From Amphiscolops sp. MND2022 (taxonomy: Eukaryota): a stretch of DNA of 60,000 nucleotides. The stretch covers positions 29,204,001-29,264,000 of the forward strand of contig OZ076409.1 of NCBI GenBank assembly GCA_964187785.1, read 5' to 3'. The notes beneath the pieces were generated by a model, which worked only from the letters and a program-made list of their open reading frames with translations, made no database searches and was not told the origin of the DNA. Shown here piece after piece: positions 1 through 44,909 of this stretch. The first letter of the stretch is position 1. Every line of letters starts with the position of its first letter. The translations under genes and the position numbers were made by a program.

Positions 1-2955
1 TTGAATAAGTTTCGGAAGTCGGTGAAGCAATTACTGCATCTTTGACTTTGCACTTATTTTGTTTCGCAAACATAAAGTAGCTTTAAACTGTGACAATAGG
101 AATCAACTTAGCTGTTCTGATGAAGAGTAGCTTCTGTTGATCTGCTAAACCAATTGATCGATCCCAATCCTTGTGTCCACGATAACTTTCTCAAGCAAAA
201 ATATCGCAACCATATGCAATATAATAAATTGACGTTGGAATTTCGAAACAATATAATATCACTTGTTTAACTCCAAAAAAGCTCTTCAATAGCCAGAGTT
301 AACTGAATTAATTGTATGAGAAACTTCCAAGCTTTCACTTTCTTCAATACTTGAGTAGCAAAGTCGACTGATATGAATCTCTACTTGGTTGCTGTGAGTC
401 TTAGTAGGAGTTAACTCTGGTTACTTTAGCATACAGGAAATACCAAATGGCGGATGTTTGTGGTTAAATTTACCATCGCCATACAAGCGCCTTGATATAT
501 AGAATAAGCAGAAACAAACTATTTAACTGGGCTAGATGTATACACCAAATTATGTAAAAGTATATATAAAAGGCATAAATTTAAGCAAGATTAAGGCATA
601 CATTTACACATGTTATTTGCTGTCAAATACTCAGTGAAGTTGACAAATAGTCCTCGTGGGTCCTAGAGACACCCACGTAGCCCAAATATGGAGTTCATAT
701 TAAGTTAAATACGATAAACAAAGAATAAAGTCCAAATATACACTGACTTTGAAAAAGGAATCCAAAATGGGACGTAAGAGGGGAATTGAAAATTTTTGGC
801 TTCGATTTTCGATTTTATAGTTTAAATCTCTCATTTGGGTCAAAATATGTCGATTGGGCGAAAACTAGCACTCAAATTCAATTCTACACATTTTTACAGC
901 ATTTTAAAACTGGCTAACTCGACTTATTTTTCCTTCAATTTTTCGGAACAAATTTTGAGGCGCCAACATATTCAATTTTAATTTACTGCTTGAATAGCAT
1001 TGCAAATGCGTCTACATTCCACAGGAGGGATGTATTTACCAGGACAGAGAGAATTGAGAAATGTAGTACGATGCATTCGGTTCGCAACAGTAATAGCTTC
1101 TGAAGTTTCACCGCTTGGGGCTGTTGAATTAAAGTTTTTAGACTGACTTTCTTGAAGAAAGTTTTTCACCTTTCTTGCTTGTTTTCAACATTGAGTGAGT
1201 GGCTCCAGATGATTTTGGATCCAGAGTCGCCATTGAGCCGTAGTTTGAGCTGCTAGGCGTGTAAGAGTGTGCTGGGTTTGCATTGGTGTAGGTTAATGAT
1301 TGTTTTTTGGTTGTAGGGTACCGGGTACCGGGTACAGTAACTTTTGGGGGTGAAATCGAATGTAATTTCTTATTGGTCAAAATTAACCATTTGACCCTTT
1401 TGTTGGTATCCTGAGGCAGTCGGTGCATTGTAAACGGTAATTATGGCTGTTGTTGCTAGTAATTTAATGATTTCTGAATCCTTGTTCGAAATAACACATC
1501 GCATTTTTTGTAACAATTTCTTAGAAATATGAGCAAATTTTGTTAAAATGTTGTCAGATTCTTGTTAGAAATTCTCGCAAAATTTGCGTGTCTTGTACAA
1601 ACTTGCAAGATTCTTAAATAAGAAATGCATAAATGGTAAGAATTTAGGTCGAATTTTGCAAAATTTGTGATTTCCGAAAACTAGGGTTATTATGGACTTA
1701 GAAGAGTCTCGAAAGATTCTATCTCTTTCTATCTCTAAGCATTTGACTTTTCCTATTTTCCACTATCAAATGTTTCAAGCGAAACTGTTTTCAGTGACAC
1801 CTGAAACCTACTTTCCAATCGTTTCTTAGTCCAGGGAACTATGGGGCCGGTGAATTTTACAGTCGCTGTCAGACATGGGAAAGATATGTTAGAGCTGGAG
1901 CTAGACCATAAAAATGTCTCAAGTAGCAAATCGGGACCTTCTCTTTGTATTAAAGTCTCCTTACATTTCTGACACAATTAGTTTTAACAATAAGTTTGTT
2001 CAAACCTAAAAGAGTTTCAGACAGCAGGCAATGTTTCTGGAGAAACTTGAATTGAAGCTGCGATCTATGGAGGGTACCGAATAATGCAAAGTTAAGCAAT
2101 CTTTATGAAAAGTTTTAAGAGGTTTCTGGAAAACTCAAAAAAGGAAGTTCATGAATCACTGGCATAGTAACCAAAATCAATCAATTCATAGTTATTGAAT
2201 ATAGTTGTTTGATGAAAATTACTGAACAAAAACTGATAGCAATTGCAATTACAATCACTAAACTACTAAGCAAGCATTTCCACAGTTCACATTTAGGCAT
2301 TTTACATACGGGTTGACTTACCGGGTTTTGCTTTTTCTACTGTAATTAGTGTTAAACAAAAAGGTTACCCATTTTAACCACTGGAACATCGTCATCTTTT
2401 TTTTTCACTATAGACGAGAACCTAAGGAAACAGTTACAAATCAGCTATATATCAGCCGGTTAAACATTGCCTCGTGGCTTGGACGCTGGATTTCATCCAA
2501 AGTTCAAGTATAGAATGGTGTGATTAATGTTTTTCACTCTTATTTATCAAAAAAGTTTAGAGCATAAAATTCTTTTGCTGTAAACTTGAAAATCACTGAA
2601 TTTAAAAATTCGTTCAAGGGTCGAAAATTTCCTAACTTGCTTTGAAGGTCATACTTGATTCAAATTGAAAAATACAATCAAAAACATGAAGCTTTATGAC
2701 AAATAAAAGTGTATGTATCATGTTTGGACTTTAGTTTGATTCATCTTTGTTCAGCTATTCTAGTTTTTAAACTAACATCAATGACTATTTTGCAGTTTTT
2801 GCCAAAAATTACAATCACCAATTGAGTCCACTCAACAAGAGGAATAAGATATTGGGCATCATTGCATCAGCTGAAATGAATTATTAGAAAATGTTATCAG
2901 GTTGAACACGAGAAACTTTGATATCGAGCATTTCTACTATCCTAGTGCATAGAAA

Positions 2956-3095
2956 GATGATTATAAATTTTTCCTGTCTTCCTTGTCTTGGATGATTATA
3001 AACTTTTCCCGTCTTCCTTGTCTTGGATGATTATAAACTTTTCCTGTCTTCCTTGTCTTGGATGATTATAAACTTTTCCTGTCTTCCTTGTCTCG
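2956..3095. repeat. Tandem repeat, 35-bp unit x4
   Basis: GATGATTATAAACTTTTCCTGTCTTCCTTGTCTTG repeated four times with single substitutions; no spacers. Confidence 0.95.
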
Positions 3096-5059: not shown

Positions 5060-5381
5060 TACTTAGCGAGATACAGTTTGATTGAAAATGAAAATATTAT
5101 CAAATGAATCCCAAACTAATCAGTTCAAACGACGCCCATAGAACACCGGAATTTTTCCGTCCTAAAGTAGTTCAGCGACAACATAGAAAATAAAAAGAAT
5201 TTCGAATTTATCTATGAGAATTCTCATAGATATATTCGAAATTCTTTTTATTTTCTATGTTGTCGCTGAACTACTTTAGGCCGGAAAAATTCCGGTGTTC
5301 TATGGGCGTCGTTTGAACTGATTAGTTTGGGATTCATTTGATAATATTTTCATTTTCAATCAAACTTTATCTCGCTAAGTA
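5060..5381. repeat. Long spacer-less palindrome (161-bp arms)
   Basis: Centre TCTATGAGAA|TTCTCATAGA at 5220/5221; arms are reverse complements with about 3 mismatches. Confidence 0.95.
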
Positions 5382-6501
5382 GCTACCCGCTTAGTACCCG
5401 CTTAGTACCAGCTTAGTACCCGCTTAGTAGCTACACGCTAAGTAGCATCCTTAAGGAATGCTAAGTAGCTACTAGTTTTTTAGAAATGAAAATCCTAAAA
5501 ATACATCAAAATTGCGTGAAAATGGTTGAAATTTAAATGTTTTAAGAGTATAAGTTTGAAACATCAAAATTTGTCAAAAAATTCGGCTGGGAGATGAATT
5601 TTCTTCTTCCTATGAATTTGGTTGGAATGCTGAAGAACACTAACACTGTTCTTCTTTGTTCTCGAACTCTTTTTTCTTGTCAGACCACTCGAGCCAGAGA
5701 AACACCGTGCCTGCGATGGAACCGACGAATACCAGTGCATACACGAGGTACACGAACACGGCTGCCAGGAATCGCAGCAGGATCAGAATCACAAACGACA
5801 TGCCTTAAACAGAAGCATAATAATATGGACTGAAAAAATATATGTGGCGACATGGAGTTATTACAAAATAGTTTGAGATTGATGGGTTATTGTGTGCTTT
5901 TTCATCTTTGGACCTCGAAAGTAGCTGAAGGTTAGGCGAAGAATAATGAGTCTGAAAGCGAGAGTGCGCTTTCAACTTTTTTTGAAATCTTCGGTGACTT
6001 TTTCTGTTTCTACCAAGCTTCTCAATTGAAATATTGAACAGAAATTTCTTTCATATTTTCTTTCTTGTTGGAATACAAATCTTTCACCGATGGCATGCAT
6101 AGACCTGAGAACGGAACCAGTTTCCAAAGTTTATTCAAAATTGCCAAGTTAGCTGATGCAGATATCAACTTTTTCCAACACTGGTCTGTAATTATTGAAC
6201 TGAATTATTTCGTGATCGACTTTTAGTATACTCTGACAGCACTTATCATTAGAATGGAAAAAAGAATCATCTAACCGACTCCAACCAATGAGATGTAAGT
6301 TATCTCTTTCCATGACCTCTCGACCTCGGAAGCGAATGTCTTGAGGGAGTCTTCACCCAAACTGGAAGTGACCTTGTTGGCCTGGGACATAGCCTCACCC
6401 GCCTTCTTCAGGGCAGATGTGGGGGTACATCGATGCAGAATGGGCTTGCTGGAAACAGAAATCTTAAAACAACCGAAGAACTCATTCAGATGTTCAGATG
6501 T

Positions 6502-7625
6502 TGTCATGCCCGCCAAGCATGAAGGAATTAAACGAACTCTAAAGCATTAATTTATACATCAAACTCCCTAAAATACAGATCATCATGAAAATACATTGCA
6601 GTAATTTATTCCCCGAACAATACAGTTGAAAGTATAACGACTGGAACTAACAGTCATCAATACTAAATTCATTCATGTTATTGTGCATCGTTTAGAAACC
6701 AAGACTGAAATATTCAGTCACCACAAATGATTCCCACAAATAAGACTGAAACAATCAGTCATCAGCTATTGCGATAGTATATCATTTAATCATTCTTCAT
6801 CCATTTTTTATATTACATGTATAGTATTACCAGAATACTCAATCATTCATAACAACAACATTTCATTCATTCATATCAGCAATTTGTACAATGCCTTTTA
6901 GTAATTATCCTCCAAACGATAATTGAATCAGTCACCATGATGATAAGGATACACGGTAGTAAAACCTCAGTTTAAGAGGTAATTGAGACAATTGCGTGCT
7001 AAAATGACTGGTGCTTGCGGTCATACTAGATCAGACATGAATAATTAAACGCCGATTATCACCCGTCACGACTGTAGCCACCAGTCGTCAAGTGCAATTA
7101 AATAGCAATTAGTAAATCGAATGTCATTGGCTAAAAGGAAAGGTGCTAACACACCTTTATAGTTACACAATCGGGTAAAACCGAACTCACTCACAAGTTG
7201 TAACTATTGATATAACCAGTTGCCTACTACCTTGCTTACGAGTTATCAATCCTTATCTTAACATTAAAATATTTCAATTCAACTTAAAACTTCCAGACTT
7301 TTCATGGTAATTACCAGATCTCAAAGTAGTCAAAATAGACAAGTAGAAGCTGAAAATATGGATAGATCAAGCGATAATGAAAGTGAATCCAGTTTCCCTG
7401 AACTCTTATCCAGAGACCAAATTGTAGACCTTGACTCTGACGACGTTTTAACTAGACGTCAAAATGGTAATAATTATAACATTGATCAACGATTTAACGA
7501 GATAAATAGACAGATCGGAGACCTTACCAATATAGTCCTTACATTGACCAATCAGTTTGCCTCCGTTAATGGAGAAGGGAACAGACTAAATCCAGCAACT
7601 ACGAGTACTGACAGTCGTTCCGACA
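6502..7625 (+). repeat. 5' LTR
   Basis: TGTCATGCCC...TTCCGACA, nearly identical to 20145-21268 (about 6 substitutions by eye). Confidence 0.97.
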
Positions 7626-7638
7626 TGGTGACAGGAGT
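7626..7638 (+). promoter_or_regulatory. Primer-binding site, most similar to tRNA-Leu(CAG) 3' end
   Basis: TGGTGACAGGAGT directly after the LTR-terminal CA; the complement of the tRNA-Leu 3' end as I recall it is TGGTGTCAGGAGT (1 mismatch). Confidence 0.7.
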
Positions 7639-8826
7639 CCCGAACCCACGACCATCAGGATCTCGAACAACACCACCCAACGGGACACCAAGGAGTGACG
7701 AAAGTATTCCGCAGATAGCAGATGTGATGACGGAAATCCACCATCTCCGCAGTACAATGGGGGAAACCTTGACCCAACCAAAAATCCTGCAGACCCAAGT
7801 ACCTCTATTCAAGGGAAATCGAGACAAATACAATGAATTCGAGCATTTATTGCTCAACCACTTACGACCACATGCCCACAAACTAACTGAAGAACAAAAA
7901 CTCAACTACTTTCAGAGTCTTCTCAGCGATGACACAATTGAGTTTTGGCAAACCCTGACAATCACAACAGAAACGACACTGAGAGATATACTGACGGCAT
8001 TCAAAAAAGAATACGCAAAGGAAGAACTCTCAGAAGTCTCGAAGTTCAAATTCGACCAGCTACGATACGATCCGGCCACTGAGTCATTCAGTACCTTCCT
8101 CGCCAATTACAAAAAGATTGCCAAACAAGCCTACGGCGAAAAGGCACAGGAAATTGTCCAGAACTTCCTGTTTGCCAAATTACCGATCCAGCTCCAAAAC
8201 GAACTGGCAATTGCAGGAAAACACAATGCCAGCATTGAAGACATCAAAACATTCGTCCAGAGAAGATGCCAATATGCCCAGTTATTACCAAATCAACAAC
8301 TCCTCCAACCGTTCAACCAAGCTATCCAGACACAAGAAGTCCCAAACAAGCCAGTTGTTCAGAAAAGAAACGAAAACGAACGACCAACAATAAAAAAGAA
8401 ATTCGATGGCAATTGCAGATAATGCGCAATTTACGGACACAAATGGGCTGAGTGCCGAAAACGACTGCGTGACGAAGCAGCGGGCAACAACAACTCACAA
8501 GCACAGAAAAAGCCCGAACAGCAAAACAACAACGCAGAAACACAACCAAAATACAATGCCAAACTGGTCTACCAAATTTGCGGATATACAGGTCACTCCG
8601 CAAAAGACTGCCGTTACAGAATACCCCAAACTTCCGCCTACGGAAGCGTGCCATACAAGAGGCAATCCACAAATGAAAACAGGGACTTCCGACGCGACTT
8701 CCGAAGAGCACACAACTACCCTTACCCAGCAAATGAAATGAACGAACTTGCACCAGGGGACCAACAACAGCGAACCAGTGACGACTACTACCAACAGGAA
8801 TTAACCGAAGGATCATCCAGCCAGCC

Positions 8827-8833
8827 AAAAAAC
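8827..8833 (+). promoter_or_regulatory. -1 ribosomal frameshift slippery site A_AAA_AAC (gag to pol)
   Basis: Heptamer is in the correct phase just before the gag stop; pol is in the -1 frame and open across the site. Confidence 0.8.
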
Positions 8834-8874
8834 TTCTGAAGTCACGTCATCCGACTGACTATTACAATAACAAA

Positions 8875-11800
8875 GTGCGCAACATGAACAACTACTACTA
8901 TACAAAGAACTACAAAAACCGGGCAACTGATCTTCGGCAGGATCAGAAACCTAAGACTACAACTACCCACGAAACAACCAATGACAAAGTGAACCCGCCC
9001 TCCGAACCGACGGACGTGAACTTACAAACGACAGAAGACAAACAGCACTCCAACTCGACTACAACGACTGATTGTATAAGGAAAACAATGAACCGAAAGA
9101 AAGACGTGGCGATCCAGGTGTTAACAGCAACACTCCAATTAAACAAAAAGGACAAGATGTTGTACGTCCCATTGCAATTCCGAGAATACGAGAACCACGG
9201 ACTCCTCGACACAGGAGCAATAAGAAGTGCAATGTCAGAGGACGAACTCAGACGAATCCTGTCTGCACACCCAGCCGCACTTCTCGAAGAGTACCCAGTA
9301 CCGGACTTCAAAGTCCAAATCGCAAACGGAAGCATCGTCCCAGTCCGGAAACAGGTACTACTTCGCTTCTTCATCGGAGGTAAAGTATTCGAGGAAACCT
9401 TCATGATTCTTCCAACCATAGGTAACATCTTGATCGGATTGTCATTTTTCAAAAAGTATTCAGTGACACTCGACCTTGCCAACAACGTAGTCAAGTTCCC
9501 GGACATTACCCTGCAACTAAAACCAGAAAGAGGACGATACAAAATCCAGATGATCGAATTACGAACGACACAGAAAACAGTCATTCAACCGGACCACCAA
9601 ATCATTGTCCCCGTCCTATCAGAAAGGGACCTCGGGACAATCCAGGGCACAGTGGAAACCTTTCCTGCCTTTGAAAGGAAGACACAATTACTGGTGTCCC
9701 CCGCCCTAACGCAAATCACTGAGAAGAAAAACCATGTCCATATCACCAACCTCACCTGCCATACAATTACCCTCAACCCGAACACGACAGTGGCCACCTT
9801 CAAAATAATGACTCCCAATCAATCAAAAAACCTACAACCGATGTCAAACGAACAATTCACACTAATAACCAAATACCCGGACGAAGCCAACAACGTACTG
9901 AACCAGCTGTTCCAGGAACCCGGCACTGAAACCAACCGCAGATGGTACCCAACCCCGGAGACATGTGATGACCCGTCCAAGCTGAACCGCCTTGAAAGGC
10001 GGATATATGACGAAATCACTCAACTCCGTGAAGAAGAGAAACTGGACCCAACAGCAGACGACCAACAGCGCAAGGAGTTCCTTGCTTACTTCAAATGGGA
10101 AAACTCAATCCTGAATGAACACGAACAACAACAGACTGAGAACCTCCTTGTGAAGTACAACAATGTATTCGCCAGACACCGCCTCGACATAGGCATCAAT
10201 ACTGACTTCAAAATCAAACTCACTCCGAAGCATGATGAACCAGTCTACGCGCAGAGCTTACCTACACCCACCAACCTCAAAGATGACCTGCTCGTCGAAC
10301 TAGCGCTGATGCAAGAGTACGGGATCATCACGACGTTGCCGTACAGCAAGTATTCCTCACCAATATTTGCTCAGCGCAAACCCAATGGGAAACTTCGCAT
10401 TCTTGTAGACCTGCGCAGAATCAACCACCTCTTGAAAAATGATTACAACCAACATAATCATCCAGTCACCACCATCGCCGACGCGAAGTACCACGCGAAG
10501 ACGCTGGACTGCTCGCAGGCGTACCACTGTTTGCAGATGGCGGATGAACAATCCATACAACTCTTAGCATTTAATTTTGGAAGTCGAACTTTTGCTTATC
10601 TACGACTGGCACAAGGACTCAACCGATCCCTATCAGCATTCAACAGCACGGTACGAGAATACGTTGATGCACTGGTGAAAGCGGATAAATGTGCCCAATA
10701 TGTCGACGACATTGGGATTGCTGCCCACACGGTAGATGAGCTACTGTCAAACATCGAAGCTGTGTTTCAACAAATCCAAAAAGCAGGACTGAAATTGTCG
10801 AAGTCAAAATGTGCGTTTGGCCACCCACAGATCGATTTCCTCGGGAGAAGCATCACATCAAAGGGTGTCGCCCCACTTGAAGACAGGATCGACGAACTCC
10901 TCAAGAAGATCAAATTGCCCACATCAATCAAATCCCTCCAAAGGTACATCGGGTTTGTCCAGTTCTACAGGCAGTACATACCACGCCTAGCAGAAAAACT
11001 CACCCCACTGTACAAACTACTCCAAAAAGACGTCAAATTCTAGTTGACCCAGCAGCACAAGGACATCATCTTTGAGATTAACGAAAATCTTGCCAAAGCT
11101 GCGAAACTTTCGCTGCGTCTGCCGTTACCCGATAAACAGCTTGTTATAATGTGCGACGCCAGCGAGCATGCGACAGGATATGTCCTCCTGATAGAAGACT
11201 ATACCGAAACAAACGATGGACCACTGAAGACGTACGCCCCAGTATCATTTGGATCCCAACGATTCACGGAGGGCCAAATGTCCCTAACAATGTACGCAAA
11301 GGAATTCCTGGCGATGCATTTCGCATTCGACGAATTCGCACACATACTCTGGGGTGCCAAAAAACCAACAATAGTAATGACGGACAATAAAGCACTGACC
11401 CGATTTTTTCAGTCCAAACGGATTCCCCCGAAGCTATGGAGTTACTGCGATCAGACGCTCCAATTCGAATTCGTACTTGCCCATGTTCCGGGAACTGAGA
11501 ACCCTCCTGCAGACTACCTGTCTCGTCTTGACATACGACCAGAGGAAAGAATACACCTCAAACTCAACGACGAGATACCAGTCTTCCACGTCGAGATCGA
11601 CCTGGCATCAAGAACACCCAAGCAGGACGAAGAAGAAGAAGAATACATACCTGATGACCAACACACTACCACCACCAAACAAAATGAAGCCATCAACGCC
11701 ATCCTGGACCAGGTCCCCATGTGCAGCAACGAATCGAGTGGACAGTTTCTCGAGAGGATAGAAACCATCCGTCATCAAATCACACCCATCATCACAGGGC

Positions 11801-13315
11801 AATATGACGAGATGACGTTCACCAGATTCAGACGAAAGCTTCATGACAACGTGGTAAACCAGGTATGCCCAATGGGGAGTTTCAAATCATCCAGGATCAA
11901 GTCGTAAACCTTGACATCCAACGCATGATTAGAGTTTTGAACCAAAAGGAAACCCTTCCTTATCATGTCAACTTTGAAAGCCAGTTTTTCCAAAAACTAG
12001 TTAAATACAAGAAAAATCTTGAAGTAGTGAACAACGTTTTGTACAGGAATTTTTTTGGTGGTACAGGTAAAATCAAGTGTAAACAAGTTGTCACTCCCCC
12101 TGAAACCATTCGAAAAAGCATTCAATCCCTGCACGATGACCCTCTGCAAGGTCACCCTGGTTGTAACAAAATGCTCCAGGAACTGCGTAAAAGGTACTAC
12201 TCACCAAACCTCTCTGAACTGGTACTGCAATACGTCTCGAACTGCCAGGACTGCATCCGCTCAAAACCAATCCGAAAAGCTGCAATCACACCACCACTTC
12301 AACAAATATACGACCCCTGCAACGGGCCAGAAGACATACTAGAAATTGATTTAGTCGGTGAACTCCCACCTTCCAACGGATTCACACACATACTCACTGC
12401 ATGCGACTACTTTTCTAGGTACCTCTTCGCAATACCAATCCGTAAACCGGACACAAAGTCGGTCGTGGAAGCACTCATGCAAATCTTCACGCAGCACTCG
12501 TATGTACCCAAAACAATCTTAACTGACAAGGGAACGACATTCACATCTCAACTGACGTCACTGGAATACTAGATAACATGAACAAAAAATTCCAACAAAC
12601 ACATGACAACATAATCGAAGCCTTTCACAAATACAAGAATTACTACGACCGAAAAGCACAAGCTTCACCTCTGAAAGTAAATGATTTCACCTTTCTGCTA
12701 AACAAAAGACTGTCTCAGCAATCTGACAAAATTCCATTCAAGGAATTCAAGTGAGAAGGCCCATACAAAGTGGTCAAAGTCTTGTCAAATTCAAATTACA
12801 TCATACGTAAGATTGGCACTCTTCGCACCCAATGCGTTCACAGAATGAGGCTTCGCCCATTCACGCCAAACGAACCAATCGAAGACATTCAAGACAATGC
12901 ATCAAAATATTTCGAAGATCCTGACGCCCTCAACGAACAGGAGTTATTTGACAATAACCTACCCGATCATGTCCATGAACAGCCACAACAAGTAATACCT
13001 GAACAATCAAACTTCGAAGAGTTACACGCAGACCATGGAATGATCTACTATGAACGGCAAAACATAGAATCTGATCAAAACATCTCCATACCTGAAAGCC
13101 AAGCTGAAACACAAGAACCACAACCGGATAATGCTAGCATGAACAATTCCGAACACCAAACAAATGACCGCCCTCCAGCGCCATCGCGACACACCATGTC
13201 TCGATACGGGCTCAGACACAACCCAAAACCTACCACGTACCCTGATTTCTTAATGCACGAATTACATGGAACGCCTTCACTGCAACAGTTACTTCTGAAA
13301 AACAGAAACCTGTAA
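8875..13315 (+). pseudogene. pol: Pol polyprotein (protease, RT, RNase H, integrase, GPY/F) with lesions
   Basis: LLDTGA protease; YVDD RT; CDAS RNase H; H-H-C-C zinc module and IDL/TDKG integrase aspartates; GPYKV motif; stop at 11041-11043, frameshift near 11877, deletion near 12550 removing the integrase Glu region, stop near 12752. Confidence 0.93.
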
Positions 13316-13949
13316 AACACCCATCCCTCATTGCATTTCTCAAACCAACGACTGCTAACAGCAGTCATAAACAGTCTCGCTCCTTGACCGTAAAAGTAAT
13401 TGTTTTACAATTACGCCCCTATATACCAGTACTCAACAAACAGTATTGAAAATTCCGGACAACCTAGCACACAATCCAATTAATACGATTAAATGACCAT
13501 CCACTTCCGTCGACACTGTTTGAACCGTCTAATTACTTAGCATCAACCACTACGTAAGAAGCAAACAAACGGTAACATAACGACTGCAAACGCCAATCAT
13601 CCCGACACTCGCGGTCCGCAAGCACACGTAGCGCGTAAAAGTGTGAACGATAATTTATTCAATTCGCACCAAAACTACCACATCAACAACCGAAACGAAA
13701 CACTTCGCTTAGAAAACCGTCGAAACACAACTAACGAAACGTGAACGAAAACAACGTTCCCTAAAAGCGCAACAAACTAACAGTGACGATCTGCTGCCTG
13801 GCAAACGTTAAGACAACACAACCAATATTCCACCCATTTCGACTTAAACCCATAGTGCTGGCTGTGTGGGTGCGTCGTCGAAAAGCGCGCTTGTGTGGTT
13901 GGTCGTCACCATACAGATGAAGGTTGCTCTTTAGCAACTGGATTCAGTG

Positions 13950-14760
13950 TTAGTTTTGTATAGGTGGTTCCGACGGGAATTCACCTTTTCCAATGATCTG
14001 AACATCAAAAATAAAAAACCAACCATAGACGATAACACAACGCCGGTAAGAACAAGAACTTACCAAATCCAGAAAACAATGAATGCCCGGCCCCTTAAAA
14101 GTAACCAGATATGCGAAGGCTTCGCCTCGTTTGGGAAAAGATTCATGAGTGCGCGGCCCCAACCTCCGCTTAGTATTAAAAACCACACACACCCATAGTT
14201 CTCAGTCCAACAACTTCCTACCACCGAAGTTAACATAATGTAAGAACCCGCGATCTTGACGACACACATCACGTATGATGACGTCCCAGAACACACATCA
14301 ACGATGATGACGTCGCGTACACAGACCGCTACATGTAATATATTGAAACCCAATAAAATACATGTAAAATAATAGTCCATAAGACTTATAACATGAATCT
14401 TACATGCAAACAAAATAAATCATGCATCAAATCAAGGATACACTCCTTAAGTTTTCCGTCATTGAAATGAACAAACTGCTCAGTCACGTACCTTGCAGTG
14501 CGGTGCTAAGGACTGGAAAGCCAGGGTCTAAATGTCTCGTTACCATTCTCGAGCCTTCACTAACAACTTACATGAAAACCTGGCTCTCGAGTACCATGCA
14601 CAGCACAGTTTGACGCGTGAACAAATGTTTATGTTAGTAGTTACCGCAGTGACAACCATAACCAATATGAACTTCCTCAAAAAACTCTCTGAAGACGCCG
14701 TAACAATTAGAGCGTAAGTCCACTCGAAACCATAGCGAAGTATGGGTTACCCCATACACA
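13950..14760 (-). pseudogene. Candidate second antisense spliced gene of unknown function inside the LTR element
   Basis: Exon 14328-14064 (acceptor CATGTAG, donor TTG|GTAAGT), 66-nt intron, next exon from 13997 in frame; in-frame stops in the main exon are TGA. Confidence 0.4.
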
Positions 14761-15128
14761 CACTTAAGAAAGACAAAGCCAGTCCAGCATCATGCATAAA
14801 CGTACATACAAACAACAAAAAAAGCAAGCATAAGAGCCATGCAACTTAAGGTTTCACGTCCTACAAAAAAATGAAATTGTCACATGCAAAACAAGTGAAA
14901 AACCTCTTGTGACGTCCGAACTGTCCAGTCCTAAGGAAAAACAAAGAAGAGTACTATGATGGTTGAAACCATCTAATTAAATTACTAGAAAGTGCAAGAC
15001 CTACTCAGGCCAAAATAAAATGCAGCATTCAAAGCAAATCACAATATCAGGACTCAATAAATAAACAAAAAGCTGAAAACACAAAGAAATATGGAAAGTC
15101 TGATTACTAATACAAGTCCTTCTGCCAA

Positions 15129-18100
15129 CTAATACTCTGTAGAACGGCTGGAACCGCCCTCGTTACTGCTTTCTTCTAGTGAAAAAGCCCGCCTGCTAGC
15201 TTGTACAGGTTCAGTCTCAAAGGTAGCCAGAGTGCGCTTCCCTTTCTTGTCCGGCTTCCCATCGGTCCTCTGTCCGTGATTGCCCACTGACGTCCTACTG
15301 ACCGCTTTGCGCTTCGGAGCTGACTCACTCGGACCTGCTGATGACACTACGACCTCGGATTGCAATTTCGGCGCTTGAGCTGCTGAACGCCTTGATTTGA
15401 TAGGACTCCGACGGGGAGCAGTTGGACTCGACTCCATTGTCCGCAACTGATTACAAACAGCAGACACATAAACGTCAATGACAGGGCGAGTAGGTAGACC
15501 ACCAGTCGTCTCCAGTACAGTGACACAGCGCCCAAGTGATTCGTCAACCCCCCTCTTAACCAATTGGTCCCAGGGGATAGCTCTGCCTTCATCGGTTAAC
15601 CGCGAAACCTGCATGTCTGTAGTGCTGCAGTGTCTAACAAAACCAATCATCGAGCGTCGAGAGTGCCCGCCGAAACCACTCGACATCCAGCTTCGAATAA
15701 TGTTCAAACTTGACAGCATGATACTGTCATCGAGGGCTGTGTCTCCTACATCTTGAAAATCAGCAGCATACGAATCATGGAGCATTCCCACAAAAAGAAT
15801 CTCCACAATGCCCCGGAATTCTTGGCACCGGTCCCACGAAGGATATGACAGGCACAAAGACATGGCATCGTCAATAACTGGCACCACCGAAGCATTGGAC
15901 TCCCATCGATGCTTGAAGTAGTTGACTACCTCGCGATACTGCTGTAAGATGATGGCACCTTGGTCTCCTCTGCATAGATCTCCAAAGCTGAGGACAGAAA
16001 GTGTACCCACAAGGATGTCCGTCAGCCGATCCATTGACACCGACTGAATAGCATAAGGATCCAGCGGCAACAAGCTGAGGTGCTTAACCCACCCTTGGTC
16101 ATAATCGCCAATACAAGACTCGCACACAGTCCTGAGGAAATTCTGCACTTCTTTATAAAAGAAAGGCTTCTGGCTGACCACGTCGAAGCGGAAATACTGG
16201 CCGAACAGCACTTGAAATCGGGCCTTGTCGACAGGCTTACTCTCGCCCAGTCGCAACTTCAACACGGCGAGGACTTCAAAATCAGGTGGTAACGATGAGG
16301 GTTCGACGACCAGACACAATATCTCTCAAAGGAAAGCAGCCAACTCCCGCTCGAACCACAAGTTCCGATTTCGCCCAGCAGAACACAAGCGAGGACACTT
16401 TACAACAACTGAAACACACAGGCGAATCACAACCAACATGTCGAAAAACTACACACCCTAGCAACTCAGACGTCGATAACACCCAAATCAACAATTACAA
16501 CAAAACTAGTACCGACACACCCGTACACAAGAAACACTCAAAACTCTTATACTGACCTCTCTGCCAGAAATTTCAAAACAGCAAATCGCGGCCTCGACAA
16601 AGCATCGTTGAAGACTTGAGTTTCCATACTGGCTATACTCCGCGTTTCGGACACAGTATTTGACCGGTGAACACCAAAGTAGGCACCGAGGTCGTCCCAT
16701 CGCTCCACATGTTCGGTGCACAGAGCCGACAACTCCTGGAAGCGCGCAGCACCACCGCGGACGAACTAAAACAAAATCAGCACCGAGTTAGAACAAAGCA
16801 GACCACGATCACACATTACCACACATACTCACACCAGTCCCCGAAAAAAAAACAAAAATGCTTTAACAAACTTAAAATCAATTACCTCTCGAAGCCTAGG
16901 CATATTGTCAAACGACGAACCACCGATGACGGCAGCTAAGCGGAACCGGAAATACTCCAACACGCAGAAAGGTTCCAGTCCACTCAATTCTCGCAGAAAC
17001 GTGCGCCGCAGCAAATCCTTCAGCCAGTCCACATCGAGACGACGAGTAACCAAAGGTATGGCTGGGTGCGCGATGCTAGCTAACGCACGCCCAAGACGCA
17101 GATTCTCCCCCACACTCACAGCACACAGACCCGCATGAGACTCCACACAGGCCAGAACAGAGACAACGATCTTGAGTAGTGAGCGTTCCCACTTACCACC
17201 CCCAGGAATAGCAGCTAGCACAACCATCTTGACTGTCAGAGCGTCAAAAATGTGGCAATCCACTCGCTTCAACGACCCATCAGTGCGGACGTGCAGACCA
17301 AACCGCGCCCCAGCAGAGAGTAGATCGCTCAGCTTCTCCATGACAAATGGATACAGGCCGTATAATACAAGACTCTACAACAAACATACAACAGTGACAC
17401 TCCTCAGCAAGTACTGCTAACGAAAACAGTAAGCAACCGCAAACGCGAACTAGCAGACAAGAACCAACATTCACGAACACAACACAAAAAAAAGAGACGA
17501 ACAAAACATGTATTAACTGACATTTCGGGTATGATAGCACCCTCTCACTGAAAACCAGCTCGCCCCGCATGCTACTGGACCACACTTTCATGGACCGCAC
17601 AACGCTTGAAAAGTCCTTCAGTTCAACAAAGTTATTGATAAAACAGCATAGCCAGAGGTATGAAGCACTGGACTCCGACAACTCGGGTTTCGAACCAGCT
17701 GCCTCCTCTTCTAATTCGACCGCAATCCGCTCTTCAACTGTCAGCTTCACCTCTGACTCCAGATTGACAGGTGGCTCTGACACTCTGGCTGCCCGAATTC
17801 TCCGATCCTCGTCCAATGACACGGGCCTACAGGACTTGTCCAATAGAGGCCTATTAGACATGATGCGGAAGCGCTGCTCAAGACGAGTGTGCTCTCGCCC
17901 TTTCCAATGATCCCACAAGTTGTGTAGCCCGCGTCCGGCAATACTTAAATCAACGCGGCACAGACGACCCCTTGCGAACCCGTCCACCACACGTTTGTTT
18001 CGGGGGAAACCAACGAAGGTCCCCACGACCCCAGAAACGAAGAAAGATGGTTTCAACGTTTTGATAGCACGCTTCCGTCCTGCTAACACACAACACAAAT

Positions 18101-19325
18101 CACATAGCACCACTGTCCAGTCAAAACCTTCCAAAACAAAACGTGTTTGTCCTTAATCACTAGTCGTACGTTATATACATCCCTTATTTCTTTACCACTT
18201 AAAACTAAAACCCCTCACATGATCTTTTGAGAGTTCTTACCAGGCTTTGATGTGGAGGCAACAGCAGACGAAGTCCCCCCAGAAGGAACGACGCTTTTCT
18301 CTCCAAACTCAGACGGCACATCAGATTCCACTGCCGCACGACGATCGTCCACACCAGAGATGCTCCCAGCTACGGAGCGTGGTAGAGAAGAAGTCTCACC
18401 ACCACGGGGAACGACAGGAGCTTGACCCAGTTCTCGCAACGCTTCCTTCAATTTGTCCAGGAAATCCTCGACAGCGAGAGCACCCACTGTCCCTAGCCGG
18501 CCCAAACTAGACTCGATTGCAGCCTTCACCCACTGCTGAATTTCCCGTTCCACACGACGAAACTATTCAGTGAGTTGCCCCACAACGACATCAGCTCGAA
18601 CGTTGGCATCTGCAAAGTAACCCACAGTTCACAGCACCTACTTTGGACTCAACGACTGACGGCACCTATCACCGCCTGGTTACAGAACAGCAACCGTATA
18701 CTGCATGCCATGGTATTGAACAGCAAAAAGAACCAAAAGACCCGCCCCAAGCAGATAACCTAGCTTCACAGTAACCGTGAATTCACCTACCAAGTTGCGA
18801 TGTCAGAAAGGCATCCAGTCGACGAAGGATGGGCGCTGCCTCCGTCTCAGAACCCTCAGCAGTTCCAGCGGCTATCGAAGCACGAAAGCGACGTAAATAA
18901 CTGAGCACGTCGAACATATTGACATCAGCTACAAACACGAGAACGCCCTAATTAAAATGCTACGCCTGACACTCCCTAACATTACGGGACTCAAACTTGA
19001 AAGTATGCAAACTTGAAAGAAAGTCTAAACTCTCCCTCACGCTTTAGACATACCACTGATAGTAGTACAATATACGAAGTGAGCACTTACCAAATTCCTG
19101 GGAGAGAACGACATCCAATAAATCGCCTAAACCAGCGATATTAGCAGGGGATACACGAGCCGCAAACTGACAGCAGTAACTAGTCTCCAGCAATAATCCT
19201 AATAACTCCAGATCGCCTCCACTTCCACCTAGCTGAGCCCCCTCTCCGGCCATCTGATTCTCCACTTCAGCGACTAACTCAGCTAATCCGGGATCAAAGG
19301 ACTGACCTGCCTCATCATCAGACAT
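15129..19325 (-). CDS. Antisense multi-exon accessory gene, about 1,090 aa, hAT-transposase-like with BED-type zinc finger (two in-frame stops in this copy)
   Basis: Exons 19325-19091, 18928-18791, 18609-18241, 18079-~17518, 17374-16886, 16765-16557, ~16400-15129; GT-AG junctions 1, 2, 3 and 5 keep the frame, junctions 4 and 6 are ambiguous; motif AR(G)RLCRVDLSIAGRGLHNLWDHWKGREH. Confidence 0.75.
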
Positions 19326-20131
19326 ATTGGATAACGCTAAGAGCAAAGGAAATAACTGAAACTCTTCGGGGAAATAATAATCGGCGACGAAGACACGACT
19401 GCAAAAGCTCATTCTTCCATTTATTGTTGTTATAGACTGATCACCTATTCCAATATACAATGGATACCTGACCTCCTCATCAAACAGTCTTACTCGAGTA
19501 ATACTGGACATTCAAGGAACCATATTTTGGACCTACTTCCACCAAATATCAAATGCTAATTACAAGAAGCAGAAAGAAAGCAGTCGTATTTCCCAGCCAA
19601 AAAAGATTAATTCCCCCCACAATCTTATCAGTACAATCGAAACCCGAAAAATACAGGACTAACAGTGCAAAAAACAAAACAAGGATATATTTTCATCATT
19701 GTGGAAGAACGAGCAAAGCCAACGGTTGACAAACGAAGGTGAATACTCTCAAATTAAAGCGGGATCAAATTTCAATTCAAACAGTAATTGACTCAACTGA
19801 CTTTCACTATAGCAACACAACAAATCAATCAACTGCCGATGATCGATGAAAAGTTGCTTAAACAAACATTACACTCAATGCGCACTACACGGATGACGTG
19901 GCTGTCAAACCGTTTCTATAAATAGACTTCAACTTCCGACTACCTACTATTTGCCTGCCTCACCTTGTCCATTCACGCTTCCGAAAATTTCCAGAAGCTA
20001 CATTGCCACCCACGCGTTTCTCTATACCCTGCATGCCACTTCAGCCGCTGTTCAATACTCCACTCAAACACCTGCTACCTATCAACTCGACCGTTCACCT
20101 TACCCATTACCCCTACAGCTTGCTCTCTCTC

Positions 20132-20144
20132 AAAAAGGGGGGAA
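20132..20144 (+). promoter_or_regulatory. Polypurine tract
   Basis: AAAAAGGGGGGAA immediately before the 3' LTR. Confidence 0.9.
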
Positions 20145-21268
20145 TGTCATGCCCGCCAAGCATGAAGGAATTAAACGAACTCTAAAACATTAATTTATAC
20201 ATCAAACTCCCTAAAATACAGATCATCATGAAAATACATTGCAGTAATTTATTCCCCGAACAATACAGTTGAAAGTATAACGACTGGAACTAACAGTCAT
20301 CAATACTAAATTCATTCATGTTATTGTGCATCGTTTAGAAACCAAGACTGAAATATTCAGTCACCACAAATGATTCCCACAAATAAGACTGAAACAATCA
20401 GTCATCAGCTATTGCGATAGTTTATCATTTAATCATTCTTCATCCATTTTTTATATTTCATGTAAAGTATTACCAGAATACTCAATCATTCATAACAACA
20501 ACATTTCATTCATTCATATCAGCAATTTGTACAATGCCTTTTAGTAATTATCCTCCAAACGATAATTGAATCAGTCACCATGATGATAAGGATACACGGT
20601 AGTAAAACCTCAGTTTAAGAGGTAATTGAGACAATTGCGTGCTAAAATGACTGGTGCTTGCGGTCATACTAGATCAGACATGAATAATTAAACGCCGATT
20701 ATCACCCGTCACGACTGTAGCCACCAGTCGTCAAGTGCAATTAAATAGCAATTAGTAAACCGAATGTCATTGGCTAAAAGGAAAGGTGCTAACACACCTT
20801 TATAGTTACACAATCGGGTAAAACTGAACTCACTCACAAGTTGTAACTATTGATATAACCAGTTGCCTACTACCTTGCTTACGAGTTATCAATCCTTATC
20901 TTAACATTAAAATATTTCAATTCAACTTAAAACTTCCAGACTTTTCATGGTAATTACCAGATCTCAAAGTAGTCAAAATAGACAAGTAGAAGCTGAAAAT
21001 ATGGATAGATCAAGCGATAATGAAAGTGAATCCAGTTTCCCTGAACTCTTATCCAGAGACCAAATTGTAGACCTTGACTCTGACGACGTTTTAACTAGAC
21101 GTCAAAATGGTAATAATTATAACATTGATCAACGATTTAACGAGATAAATAGACAGATCGGAGACCTTACCAATATAGTCCTTACATTGACCAATCAGTT
21201 TGCCTCCGTTAATGGAGAAGGGAACAGACTAAATCCAGCAACTACGAGTACTGACAGTCGTTCCGACA
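20145..21268 (+). repeat. 3' LTR (contains a copy of the first 107 Gag codons, ORF 20947-21300)
   Basis: Direct repeat of 6502-7625 followed by TSD GATGT. Confidence 0.97.
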
Positions 21269-22870
21269 GATGTTATACAGAAACTGGAGAACTTTTTTAA
21301 CCGTTGCTATATATCATGGCTTTCGTTTAAAAAAGGTTGGTTTTGTGAATTATTTTTAAACCCCAAACTTAAATCCATAAAGCGTTTGAAACTGATTAAT
21401 CCGGCAACGTAATTTATAGACTCTTTCGTATATGTTTTACGAACACTCGTCATTAGGTAAACTCCGCTATGTGTCGCTTTCTCGATGCGTTCAAAATGGG
21501 GAAATAGCAGAATCTCTACATGAACCCTCGAGCTGATATAAAATAATATGTAACTATTTTGTCTTCACTCATAAATATTTATTGGAGTTAATAATATTAA
21601 TCGTATAGTCTATCTTTTAATAACCATTTACCAAACGATACTTTCAATCTTCTGAGAACAATGAAAATTTCAAAAACAAAGTCGCTTTTTTGATTTCTGC
21701 AAAGTGAATACCAAATGAGAGTGAGACCCCATGTGTCAGTTCAAATCTTTCAGTATTAGTGAGCTTTCATGGTTGAATTTCGGAAATGGTTACTCACGAT
21801 CTGAAGAGTGGAGTATCAGGACAGAGTTTGTCGTCGCCCCGAGTAGCCCCTGGAAGACAGAATTCCAAGGGTATCTCTTGTGCCACTCGGTAGTCTCTGT
21901 CGGGACACTTATTAACACATACAGCTTTCACGTACTTCGAAGTGGCCAAGTCTTTAGGGTTCAGCCAAAGCAAATTCCTGTAATGCCAATGTAGTAAAAA
22001 CAAAAAGACATTGAACACAAATTGTCGGCTGTGGAAAAATTCTGTGGAAAATAAAAAAATACATTTTATCTCCAAATCATTTTGGTTCGAATATGAATGA
22101 TTTCAACTTCGTCTGCCTTTTCTTGTCCTCAAAACAAAATCATAAATCTTTTACCAGCGATATCGTGATCCAATCTAACGTGTATATTGGTCTGGTCTCT
22201 CGTTTGCTTTGAAAATGCTGATTTCACTCAACTTCTATTTTACCGTCTTAGGGTGTAAACCATCAGGACGTTTCTAAATTTTAAATCAACTTCCCACTAA
22301 GTTTGTAAGGCCATCATAAAAATCCTTCGTGATTAAAAAGAACAAAAAGTTTCTTTCTGAAGGCATCTTTAAATAACGGCACCATTCAGACGGCAAACGT
22401 TAGGAGTTTTTGACAGCAAGTTGTTATAAAAGTGACGTCACTCACGGCTTGTCAGTCATGTCCTTTCCAGACTCTTTCACGCCTTCAATAGGATCGTTAA
22501 GTTCCCCACAAATGTTTCCATAACTGTCATAGCCACGAATCAACAGAGCGACGTTTCCTCTGTCGTATGCCACCCAAGATATCACCCCCTATGCAACAAA
22601 ATCCAGACTTTTTCTGATGAAATTGGAAATGTTTTTTTTCAGGCTTCGTAATCTAAGATCATAATTTCGCAGGAAACCGAAAACTATATAAACTATATCA
22701 AGGGTTTTAGAAATTTGTTTAATGAGAAAGCAAACACCAGAAAAAACTATCAGGGTTAACATGGATGACAAATTTTTTCAAGTGCTTGTTCGGTCTATGT
22801 TCGCAAATTACTTTCAACATTTCGTAGCGTCTGCAATAAATCTTTTGACAATCGGGCACTGAAAAAAGAA

Positions 22871-24455: not shown

Positions 24456-27424
24456 AAGTCCATTTTGTTTAAAATTTTTTCCAAACTTATTGAACAAAAA
24501 GCTGCTTCTCACCATTCCGCTGAGGAAAACAATGAAGAGCGCTAAGAAGATAACATCGGTGCAACTTCTGTCCGCAAGAGGGCCAGTCAACTCCGCTTCT
24601 TCTTCCTTCTCTTCCTTCTAAACAAAAGATTTTGCTTCGGAACTTGGGTAACTTCAGGATTGACATCAGTGCATTTGACATCACCTTATCCATGTTGTAT
24701 GTTCTGCTCGCGCTCGATGAGCACTCGAACCCTTTCGTCTAGAGTTAATTCCCTGGTGCAAGCGTCACTAACTCATGATGACGGTGTTTAAGTCATTAGT
24801 TGAACCACTGCTGAATCTAACTAACTGTTTACTAACATCTTTGGTTTTTCAAGATGTTTATCTCAGATAATGTTCGGTATTGTGACACTTTTAAAAATTT
24901 ACTCAAAAACAGCTTGAGAATTTTTAAAAGACTGCTGAGCTTTATACTATTGCCGTCTTCTTTCATTTATTTCAGCGCTTGATATGAGTTGTCATCGTGC
25001 GAAGCCCTGACGGTGACTGAAAATCCAACAAGATTGACAGCACAATTCGGACCCACTAAAAGATCAAAAAGTCTTTAAAAAAATGCTTGGGGCTATTCTT
25101 TGAGAATTTTGGAGAATCACACAGCGCCGAACGAATTTAAAAACAGAAATGAGGTTCTTTCTTCCCACGTTGTTGCAATTGGTCAAAGTATTGAACGTAG
25201 TTGAATTAAACCAAAAACGACATAATTCGGTGCCCCGTCTAAGGCTAAAAAAGCAGCTTTTCAAATCGTCGAGGACTTGCTTTTTTGAAAAAATCTCACA
25301 TTGCCGGAAAAGCTTGAAAGGAGCAGGACCCTTCTAGCTTAAGAAATTTTGTAATATGGTTTTTAAATTAAAGGAAAGACCATTTGAATCATTTCTATGA
25401 AATTAAATACCTTTCGGGAAATACGATGATATTATAATGACGAGATTTTAATTATAGCTGTATTTTACTCATAACGATATTTCAGTAATACTTAATCACT
25501 GTGCCCGGCAATTTAAACTTTTGTCACGCCGTTCACCCTATGAAGGCTACGATGGAATTCTTCAGAAAGAACTGTAACGTCCGGCACCCAGCGAAACAAA
25601 ATTTCGTTGAAATTCAAAAAGTGTGCGATATCAAATAAGACAATTCAAAAAGGCCGACCTAGCAGGTACCGAAAATCGAAGAGGACGCAGAAAAAACGCA
25701 CCCTAGGCATTATCCCACTTCTATGATGTACGCTGCTAGCTGGATGTTACAAACGATTCCCCATTTAGTTGTGAATGAGAGGATAAGAGACAACGTGGGG
25801 TGGCTAACGATTATCATAACAAAAATATCTACAAATTGTGTTGACCGAGAATTTTGGTAAATGAATCTAAAAGCGGTGATTTTACATGCAATATAGATTT
25901 CATATACGATAACTTTGGTTTTGTTCGTCTACTAACAGAAATTATGTTACTTGGAGAGCGGTATGACGCGGAGCAATGCTTTTGAAAAAAACTACAAAAA
26001 AATTCAAAACTTTCTTCCAACATTCCTTTTTAGCTCAAAAGTTGATCCTATATCAAGGAACCAGCTGTTTGTGTACATTAAAAAAAATTAGAAAGGAATT
26101 TTTGACAGTAAGGTTTGAAATTAAATGAAAAAATGAATCATTTAACTACCAGTTCTTACAAATTGTGCTCTTTCTGAAAATGTAAGTATTCCTATTTAGA
26201 CGCAATAGCGAAATGCTGCCAAAAACTTTCAATCCTTTTTTCTTTGAACGTTTTCAAGAAAATTAGTGCTCTGGAGTTGAACGTTTTTCAGCTCAAACGA
26301 GTTCACGCTTCACTTCCGGCCATATTTTCAATGTTTGAAGTTACTCTGAGACCAGCTAGCCGGCATTTATTTTTTGCCATGTGGTTCAACAAGAGTGGTA
26401 TAAACAACTGCTGGAACTATTGGAAGTTCTTTAGAGTCCTTATGTGCCAATAGTTTGCTGAATAATGTGAAACTTTTGGATCTTGCAAAATTGTAACACG
26501 GGATCACAGTCTTCTGTAGAGTCTAAAATTGACAAATTGATGACTTTTAATTACATTTCTGAAGATTTCAATTTGGTAGAAACTTTACTCGTCTCATTTT
26601 GATTTTTTTGGATTGAATTGACTTGATTTTTCAGTAGGATAACCGGCTTTAGTCATTACTCTGCGAGACTTTATTTAAAAGCTTTTCTAATATTAAAAGG
26701 CTAAATTACAAAAGTCAGTAGAGAATGTTCAGTGGTTTGATGAAGTCCGAAAAACTCATGATTGTCAATGGGATGCCACATTGCTAGCGATGAAGAATCG
26801 AACTTCCTTGCAATTTCTTTATGAAGTAAGTCAACTGACTTATTTTAAGGACTTCAACTCGTCTATCTCCTTGGACATTCCAAATTTTCCAAGATTCGAT
26901 TCGTTTTTTTTTCATTCCCGATTTTTATTCCCTCAGTTAGATGCTTGTCAATCTCCAACTTAGTTTCTCCAGATGAACTTTTTCTGATTTTGAGTCACTG
27001 CCTTCTATGCCAAAATCCGGTTCAAGTAACCTATTTGGTCAAACTTTCTATTTCCTTCTCCAAGAAATTATCTATTAGTTCATTTGGATTACATGGATTT
27101 TCTCAACATCTGATAACATATCAGCCTCTTGGAAGCCAATTACTTCTGTGACATACACAGACTTGACCTTCAACCGAACTCAATAATGCGGACAATTGAC
27201 AGAGAGACACTTGGTGCTATTGACCAACAAACTTTAATTGCTGTCTATTTTGTGTTGTTTAGATTTGAACCATTTAGTAAACTTTTGATGTAACATTGAG
27301 ATTAAGATGGATGATGATAATTAACTCTTAAACATCCAACAGCGTTTTAGAACCAAGCACGATTATACACCGTTTCTTTTTTCTTTTTACAGTGTAATAC
27401 CCAGTTTTAACCAAGCAAGAAATA

Positions 27425-43224: not shown

Positions 43225-44909
43225 TGTCATGCCAGCATGATGGAAATATAATCTACTAAATATCTATAATGTAAATAATATGTCTTATGTACTTAGATAT
43301 GGGCAATATGATGTCATATAATAAGAGCTATGGTTGTGAGCAACCCTACGTTACTTGTACCTAATCCCCTATCCCCCCTTTGAGATTGGAGCTGTTTATT
43401 TATTTAATACTGAGCATTCTAGTTCCGTTTGTCCGCAATTCATGACCGTGCTAATAAGCAAATGATGCTATTTTATATTTGATGGCTTGTCACGAGAAGG
43501 GAAAGTAGTTTCTCGGTCAAACTGGACCGCTAAATGAAAGAAACAGAACTGACACCGTTAGGAAGCTCCTGCCTCAGAGCAAACTAACGTGACAGGTTTA
43601 ATCTCACTCGATAACTGATTGAAGATGCTAAAACGATGAAATCTGTCTCGAATCCCTTATTTCAATACAAAGTTAACAAGTTTCATCTATATTACATCGT
43701 CTAGCCACATAGCACAGCCAGAAATTAGAATCTAGATGTGAAACCGATGGAACTTGTCATTACTTCAATTGGCGCTAACTCCATGACGATGTAAAACCGA
43801 TAAAAATGTTCCATCGTTTGTACATCGCTAATATTTTGTCAGCCCAACGCGAACGTACAGACGATGAAGAAACGATGAAAACCTTTCATCGTTTAGACAT
43901 CGCAGAGGACGTAAATTACTGACGATGATGAACTGATTTAACCTCTCCAATTTATTGAACTACTGTCCCCTGCTCACCTGCCTCATCGTTTTCACATCTA
44001 GTTGATCATACAGAACACCGACTAGACCCCTTTCATCTATATTTTATCTACTACCATACTAACGTGAGCAACTAGTGGAAAACGATGGATAAACGACAAA
44101 ACTTATTGTGTTTTACCATTTAATCATCTCAGTGCTTCCAAATCATCATTTACGCATCTCTATATTTCAGAACTTGGATTATGTCCATTTTAGAGTTATA
44201 TTAGTACACTTACAGTACTTGCCATGACTCAGGAAAGCGCCTGTTGATGTTAGTTCATTATAAATGCATGATAATTGGTTCAAATGGATTTAGCACGCAA
44301 TTCCTAATTGGTAGCCCTCCTGCGACTTGCAGAACAACCGGTCACGTGACCAAGTGCTAATTAGCACCTTACCCAACGTCCGATGAGAATGAAGCGATGG
44401 TAAGAATTGAGTCTTACTATCGACCTGGTGAGGGGGCTAACTTTTAACGCATACACTTCGCTATAGCTACACTGTACAAGTACTTACATTACCTGCTTTT
44501 CATACGTTTTTATTGCTAGACTTTAACAACATCTCTCACAATTCAACTCTTATCCAACATTCCTATTTCTCCTTGCCTATGAGTATTGAATGCTCTAAAG
44601 TACTTAGAAGCGGCAAAGTATTAACTGATCCATCACCACAGTCGTCCATTAAAAATACAAATTACAGTCCTAACTTAAACATGGAATCTTCTAGTAATTC
44701 CGCAGATGAGATAAACCGATCTGGTAGAAATTCACCAACTAACGAAAGTTCTGCTCAAACAACAAATGAAGAAAGATTTAATCATCTGCAAATTGAAATG
44801 TCAATGTTAAAAGCTATGATGGAGAAAATCATAAGCCAGAACGAGGAACGAGACAAACAAAACGGTGGTTCCATCGCGACGTCATCTTACGCCGTAGGGA
44901 CCTCCAACA
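43225..44909 (+). mobile_element. Solo LTR (1,685 bp) with a Gag N-terminal coding segment at its 3' end
   Basis: TGTCATGCC...CCAACA, 5-bp TSD GTCGG; ATG at 44579 opens MSIECSKVLRSGK...EERFNHLQIEMSMLKAMMEKII, running to the LTR end. Confidence 0.9.

Follow-up and report, generated by a model that had tools for sequence, protein, structure and literature searches.

The window, a stretch of 60,000 nucleotides, holds a 14.8-kb LTR retrotransposon on the plus strand whose gag frame opens deep within the 5' LTR, together with a solo LTR of a distant sister family that carries an open Gag frame of its own. The features are the following.

6497..6501, plus strand: 5' target-site duplication GATGT, a 5-mer repeated at 21269-21273
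6502-21268, plus strand: LTR retrotransposon of 14.8 kb with two LTRs and the flanking GATGT duplication
6502..7625, plus strand: 5' LTR of 1124 bp, TGTC...GACA, with 99.47% gap-free identity to the 3' LTR
7124..7303, plus strand: ATG-free stretch before the gag ATG, the longest ATG gap in the LTR
7304..7625, plus strand: predicted LTR-encoded Gag N-terminus, with an MVxTRS start motif, an acidic low-confidence stretch, a heptad helix and a linker
7304..8839, plus strand: gag, encoding a capsid and two CCHC-type knuckles, with an in-frame stop at 8420-8422 (homolog P0001)
7481..7558, plus strand: heptad repeat, residues 60-85 (I60 F64 I67 I71 L74 V78 L81 F85), a predicted coiled-coil helix
7626..7638, plus strand: primer-binding site (PBS) of the tRNA-Leu type with a 12-nt complement, translated in frame as (M)VTGV
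8782..13315, plus strand: pol (PR-RT-RH-IN), shifted to the -1 frame with respect to gag
15132..16430, minus strand: antisense accessory gene of the element, with homologs and without a known family
20132..20144, plus strand: polypurine tract of 13 nt, recognised by its sequence and adjoining the 3' LTR
20145..21268, plus strand: 3' LTR, in which the 107 Gag codons recur unchanged (ATG 20947)
43225..44909, plus strand: 1685-bp solo LTR from a distant sister family, TGTCATGCC...CCAACA, with GTCGG on both sides
44579..44909, plus strand: 110 open Gag codons within the solo LTR (ATG 44579)

The element has the hallmarks of an LTR retrotransposon, namely direct TG...CA repeats within a short target-site duplication, a PBS 3' of the 5' LTR and a polypurine tract 5' of the 3' LTR. 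The two LTRs align over 1124 nt with no gaps and six substitutions (99.5% identical). All six lie upstream of the Gag-coding part, but their position is not counted as evidence, because it has a chance of about 0.13 and because the differences are younger than the insertion. The sequence TGGTGACAGGAGT directly abuts the 5' LTR end. The 12-nt complement of the PBS has two mismatches to each of two tRNA-Leu 3' ends and is identical to one of them over its last nine letters (PMC13524379, excerpt of supplement 2), the primer type being judged from tRNA ends of other animals.

This copy is dead: in addition to the stop in gag, pol is interrupted by a stop codon at 11041-11043, changes frame near 11.87 kb and has lost part of the integrase core near 12.55 kb. 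Gag and pol thus show several lesions and 92-95% identity to the nearest cluster representatives despite 99.5% identical LTRs; perhaps the defects preceded a movement in trans, or a recent conversion made the LTRs alike. Just 5' of the end of gag, in gag phase, lies a heptamer A-AAA-AAC (8827-8833), which we take to be a likely -1 frameshift site, pol being in the -1 frame; the residues K-N are retained at this place at the Gag end in several homologs. The region after pol (13316-20131, ~6.8 kb) contains minus-strand open reading frames at 15132-16430, 16829-18152, 18215-18562 and 19044-19511. The first encodes an accessory protein with 31 homologs at 50-99% identity (the match to P0513 spans 433 aa) in a family of 433-458 aa, one cluster of which has 80 members; it has no match in Pfam, and its atlas matches all lie below 0.9. 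The other three gave no match in a Pfam scan. No env frame was found on the sense strand of this region, where no frame exceeds 129 codons; the long ones lie on the antisense strand and lack a Pfam match.

By domain order and by the ranking of its PDB similarities, the element belongs to Ty3/Gypsy. Pfam matches in the window pieces and in the homolog P0210 give the order PR-RT-RH-IN (the protease match lies under the Pfam cut-off), with integrase after RNase H and not upstream of RT as in Ty1/copia. A single RNase H (residues 738-866 of P0210) aligns contiguously with the Ty3 RT-RH, and the dual arrangement of tether plus RNase H that marks Odin elements and retroviruses is absent from P0210. 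The top PDB match of an uninterrupted Pol of the family is Ty3 Gag-Pol (1.9e-48). The Gag has a capsid and CCHC knuckles: the capsid matches in Pfam and Foldseek are weak and all under the cut-off, the zf-CCHC match is over the cut-off in P0105, and the predicted capsid fold is nearest, if weakly, to Arc and retroviral capsids (best E 0.007). Pol order, a single RNase H beside RT, the weakly Arc-like capsid and the 5-bp target duplication are traits of Ty3/Metaviridae. The RT-containing piece of the window copy scores best with foamy-virus Pol (6e-30, vs 4e-18 for Ty3), which recalls the Odin retrotransposons and foamy viruses as described in the accessible text (PMC9040795); unlike these, however, the element has no second RNase H and no env was found, and its full-length Pol matches Ty3 best. 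The clade is large, with Pol clusters of up to ~1500 members.

The gag ATG at 7304 lies 322 nt inside the LTR, which accordingly contributes 107 whole codons and the A of a further ATG at 7625. The frame runs for 372 codons to the stop at 8420-8422 and crosses both the LTR end and the PBS, so that the predicted Gag reads ...RSD-MVTGV... at the junction before it continues into the capsid and the zinc knuckles; it shares 95% identity with the uninterrupted homolog P0001 (511 aa). An earlier note on this DNA had described the start, the 107 LTR codons and the reading of the PBS as MVTGV correctly in every checkable detail. The chance of 107 open codons is about 7e-4 given how often stops occur in the upstream LTR, and 3.5e-4 from 20,000 segment shuffles, such a run being expected about once per 1500-3000 segments of this kind. 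The other two frames of 7304-7625 have 8 and 19 stops, and no other ATG frame of the LTR, on whichever strand, exceeds 30 codons, against 107 for Gag. Further in-frame ATGs lie at 7358 (M19) and 7625.

Directly upstream, both LTRs of the window have their longest ATG-free gap (counted from ATG to ATG, 183 nt in the main LTR, where the next is 90 nt, and 182 nt in the solo LTR), and in both it abuts the gag ATG, as would fit a leader ending at that ATG. The stretch 7124-7303 is thus likely to hold the transcription start and the 5' leader. Within the main LTR there is no canonical TATAAA or AATAAA, 7200-7900 contains no strong splice-donor motif, and the predicted folding of the RNA from 7230 to 7680 is as stable as that of shuffles (z -0.07). 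A 10-mer, CAATTCAACT, occurs at 7275-7284 and at 44539-44548, 20-30 nt upstream of both gag ATGs; the coincidence is marginal at ~4% (194 of 5000 shuffles, 12 of 276 control window pairs), and the 10-mer is possibly an initiator element.

Among the Gag homologs, the same layout recurs. The 120 that were examined are those listed among 151 found, and 93 of them carry the junction motif. Before it, 79 of these 93 have at least 60 open codons, seven have 20-59, one has 1-19 and six start at the motif itself, i.e. at the junction ATG, which gives 14 with fewer than 60. When the capsids are clustered (77 of 121 proteins were usable), 10 of the 11 groups have members with 69-118 upstream codons, the eleventh being one decayed singleton, and between the deep clusters the N-termini are just 13-33% identical. 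More distant Gags from a profile search have 113-223 residues before the motif, which occurs in 123 of 262 proteins and at the first residue in 12. In two distant singletons, P0394 and P0423, the predicted gene begins at the junction ATG; decay, contig ends or a real absence of the upstream part are possible reasons. All homologs are gene calls, in which the longest frame is favoured and copies with stops are hidden. On these comparisons, the LTR-coded Gag N-terminus is a trait of the whole clade. Protein-led scans found no DNA of relatives in metagenome or viral contigs; a further 88 and 17 loci with the junction pattern were chance matches, none of the 105 encoding a relative of Gag or Pol. 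In P0444, several H-(H)-M/V-(V/M)-T-like units lie ahead of the capsid (residues ~185-227), perhaps the translation of an LTR end and PBS that stand there in tandem.

The earlier note had also suggested that U5, the integrase attachment site and the PBS are under dual coding constraint, and this holds in part, for the start motif and the helix, where the protein constrains the LTR. It does not hold for the attachment site and the PBS, where the DNA dictates the peptide. The invariant (S)(D/N/H)MVTG is the translation of ...ACA/TGGTGACAGG, and in 106 of 111 proteins MVT is preceded by D (93), N (9) or H (4), all of which have xAC codons, as forced by the ...xAC-A/TGG of attachment site and PBS. 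Being DNA-forced, the junction peptide is evidence neither for a protein function nor for a start at ATG 7625. Nor does the constraint extend to most of the LTR-coded residues beyond the start motif and the helix, whose evolution is near-neutral. Along a spanning tree of 24 real representatives, divergence is 5% for residues 1-6, 45% for 7-58, 20% for 59-84 and 44% for 85-104, and then 5% at the junction, 24% in the post-PBS spacer and 8% at the start of the capsid; the LTR-coded flanks thus diverge faster than the spacer (44-45% vs 24%). Over the whole LTR-coded part, the share of conservative changes is 0.40 between families vs 0.36 for private ones (p 0.5).

Within the helix the pattern is different. 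AlphaFold2 predicts a helix at residues 48-88 with a pLDDT of 82-85 at residues 61-80 and low confidence for the rest of the N-terminus, a two-copy fold of residues 45-92 scores 0.04, and the atlas matches of the LTR-coded part all lie below 0.9. At the eight core positions of the heptad repeat, selected on the pattern seen in the window itself, 26 of the 28 changes found in the 24 representatives stay within L/I/V/M/F, against 54% expected from single-base changes (p 1e-5, or 0.003 if the counts are halved); over 31 representatives the figure is 38 of 44. At twelve other hydrophobic LTR-coded positions just 37 of 79 changes stay hydrophobic. The 3-4 hydrophobic pattern is retained in both families of the window. 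The frame also stays open: at least 365 amino-acid changes among the 24 representatives without a stop would have a probability of ~1e-7 under neutrality, a rough bound subject to gene-call bias, and all 15 alignment gap blocks preserve the frame, with the same bias. Protein-level selection on the LTR part therefore appears partial and local, keeping the helix core hydrophobic, with near-neutral yet open flanks.

The solo LTR shows the arrangement a second time. Its first nine bases are identical to those of the main LTR; between the termini, the DNA of the two shows no alignment above shuffles (score 35, shuffle maximum 42), and BLASTP finds no similarity between their peptides, yet layout and phase are equal. 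Together with its duplications it spans 43220-44914, and it carries a frame of 115 open codons, 110 of Gag and five of flank, with a second in-frame ATG at 44681, and the chance of 110 open codons is again ~7e-4. The peptide is 64-74% identical to residues 1-110 of P0101, P0102, P0104, P0105, P0114 and others, full Gags that are just 35-37% identical to the window Gag, and the match stops exactly at the last base of the LTR. Predicted proteins from LTR-only copies break at the same place. In the cluster of the 3' LTR product (64 members, 15 listed), 12 of the 15 listed members have the 107 LTR residues and then unrelated tails from the junction onward, the first residue of each tail being encodable by a codon that begins with A; the other three end earlier. 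In the most distant family, P0478 switches to an unrelated tail after 195 residues. The 3' LTR of the window likewise reads ten further codons into its flank.

Taken together, the LTRs of this clade carry an open, conserved frame for 70 to ~200 Gag residues, and it is very probable that Gag is translated from an ATG in the LTR, through the attachment site and the PBS, into the capsid. That Gag begins within the LTR, as the earlier note had read the locus, is supported by the homologs down to 35-37% identity, the solo LTR, the LTR-only proteins and the selection on the helix. Transcription would start in the ~180-nt ATG-free stretch, initiation would take place at ATG 7304 as the first AUG met, and the Gag-coding part of the LTR would then fall within R-U5. 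In the resulting Gag, a short conserved start motif would be followed by a flexible region, then by an oligomerising helix, the junction peptide S-D/N/H-M-V-T-G dictated by DNA signals, and the capsid; the start motif and the four-heptad helix are the segments through which the protein would constrain the LTR. From the heptad pattern and by analogy, the helix is most likely an oligomerising N-terminal segment of Gag. As a by-product, each 3' or solo LTR bears an ATG and an open Gag fragment running into flanking DNA.

Gag might instead start at ATG 7625 or later, the LTR frame being open by inheritance or chance and untranslated. The almost invariant junction methionine, the six of 93 listed homologs called from the junction ATG and an overall substitution spectrum close to neutral fit such a start. 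However, this ATG is forced by the LTR-end A and the TG of the PBS, the changes without a stop and the in-frame gap blocks speak against an untranslated frame within the limits of gene-call bias, and the heptad-core selection and the second family are left unexplained; we regard this start as very unlikely. That both starts are used, the LTR ATG for a long Gag and the junction ATG or M19 for a short one, through leaky scanning or a shorter transcript, is unlikely: the in-frame ATGs at 7358 and 7625 and that at 44681 of the solo LTR would permit it, but M19 is common to just 38% of the 24 representatives, and a selection signal for a second start is inseparable from the constraint on the PBS. 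The repeat could also exceed the true LTR, if a template switch or an assembly error had placed a second copy of part of gag at the 3' end. Nothing was found in favour of this reading, and the target duplications contradict it, since beyond its terminal ...GACA the left copy of the repeat meets the PBS and the right copy the target duplication; LTR-only copies elsewhere and the solo LTR moreover break at the same residue, and the chance of such a duplication is practically negligible.

A start in the LTR also leaves room for other roles of the encoded segment. It may mainly be a long flexible leader that brings the ribosome to the capsid, in which the helix has no part in assembly (targeting, host-binding or none). 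We consider this somewhat unlikely. Residues 7-58 and 85-104 drift freely, the deep families have no detectable shared sequence in the LTR-coded part, and metaviral N-termini are typically variable single helices with disorder, according to the accessible text (PMC10516033); the hydrophobic pattern shared by both window families and the 38 of 44 conservative changes over 31 representatives argue against it. With regard to the LTR-only copies, each 3' and solo LTR of the clade would hold a promoter besides the ATG and the open frame for the helix, and the capsid-less Gag fragments made from them might bind full Gag via the coiled coil and so limit the spread of the element, a copy-number brake within the LTR for which the odds seem decidedly poor. 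Ty1 p22 offers an analogy for such a brake by a Gag fragment. Both LTR-only frames of the window are open, as are 12 of the 15 listed cluster members, which says little for a brake because young copies are open anyway.

In Ty3/Gypsy elements gag normally starts after the PBS, and the present element differs from the others in its gag start deep in the LTR and in the ~6.8 kb after pol with antisense frames. The contrast drawn in the earlier note with Ty1, as the element with a much shorter overlap, stands, as the Ty1/copia element Ty1 of Saccharomyces cerevisiae has a 53-nt leader before Gag, with the PBS (nt 95-104) and cis signals within the coding region, and thus ~40 nt of gag before the PBS, vs 322-331 nt here and ~585 nt in the P0453 family (PMC5454406, in the portion available). 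The depth of the start, on the other hand, has a precedent in Tca5 of Candida albicans (Ty1/copia, Ty5-like), where one long frame that crosses the PBS has its first in-frame ATG at 382 bp of the 685-bp LTR, ~300 nt inside it, the start used in vivo being unclear (PMC4139406). The two share a Gag ATG deep in the LTR and a frame through the PBS. However, Tca5 is a single element of Ty1/copia order from a yeast host with a tRNA-iMet primer, whereas here a whole Ty3/Gypsy clade is concerned, with a Leu-type PBS and with selection on the LTR-coded helix. In Diaspora and Ogre the LTR is followed by a long gap (PMC1142308, accessible part), a literature remark on choanoflagellate elements mentions codons overlapping LTRs, and the accessible texts on Tor, errantivirus and microsporidian elements contain no statement on a gag start in the LTR. 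Narrow phrase matching in open-licence literature turned up no Ty3/Gypsy clade in which a long part of Gag is encoded by the LTR; the trait may be annotated already in Repbase, GyDB or subscription papers.

LTRs are treated as non-coding in annotation, in dating and in structure models of Gag, and here 100-200 Gag residues would lie inside them, so that pipelines which split the LTR from the internal part would lose the Gag N-terminus. Minus-strand strong-stop DNA would have to cover at least 322 nt of coding sequence. The junction peptide can serve as a protein-level marker of LTR ends without DNA, and solo LTRs become potential mini-genes; if LTR-only Gag fragments are indeed made, the host would gain a great many start exons ready for use. 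The gain of sequence within the LTR is also a possible route to the variable and poorly understood N-terminal helices of metaviral Gags that the available text describes (PMC10516033).

The window further contains two unrelated, heavily decayed Gypsy-like elements, at 27147-33365 and at ~45500-51000 (minus strand), the former with short LTRs of which the right one is apparently interrupted by an insertion. At 5060-5381 lies a near-perfect palindrome with arms of 161 nt that are 98% complementary and adjoin each other without a spacer.
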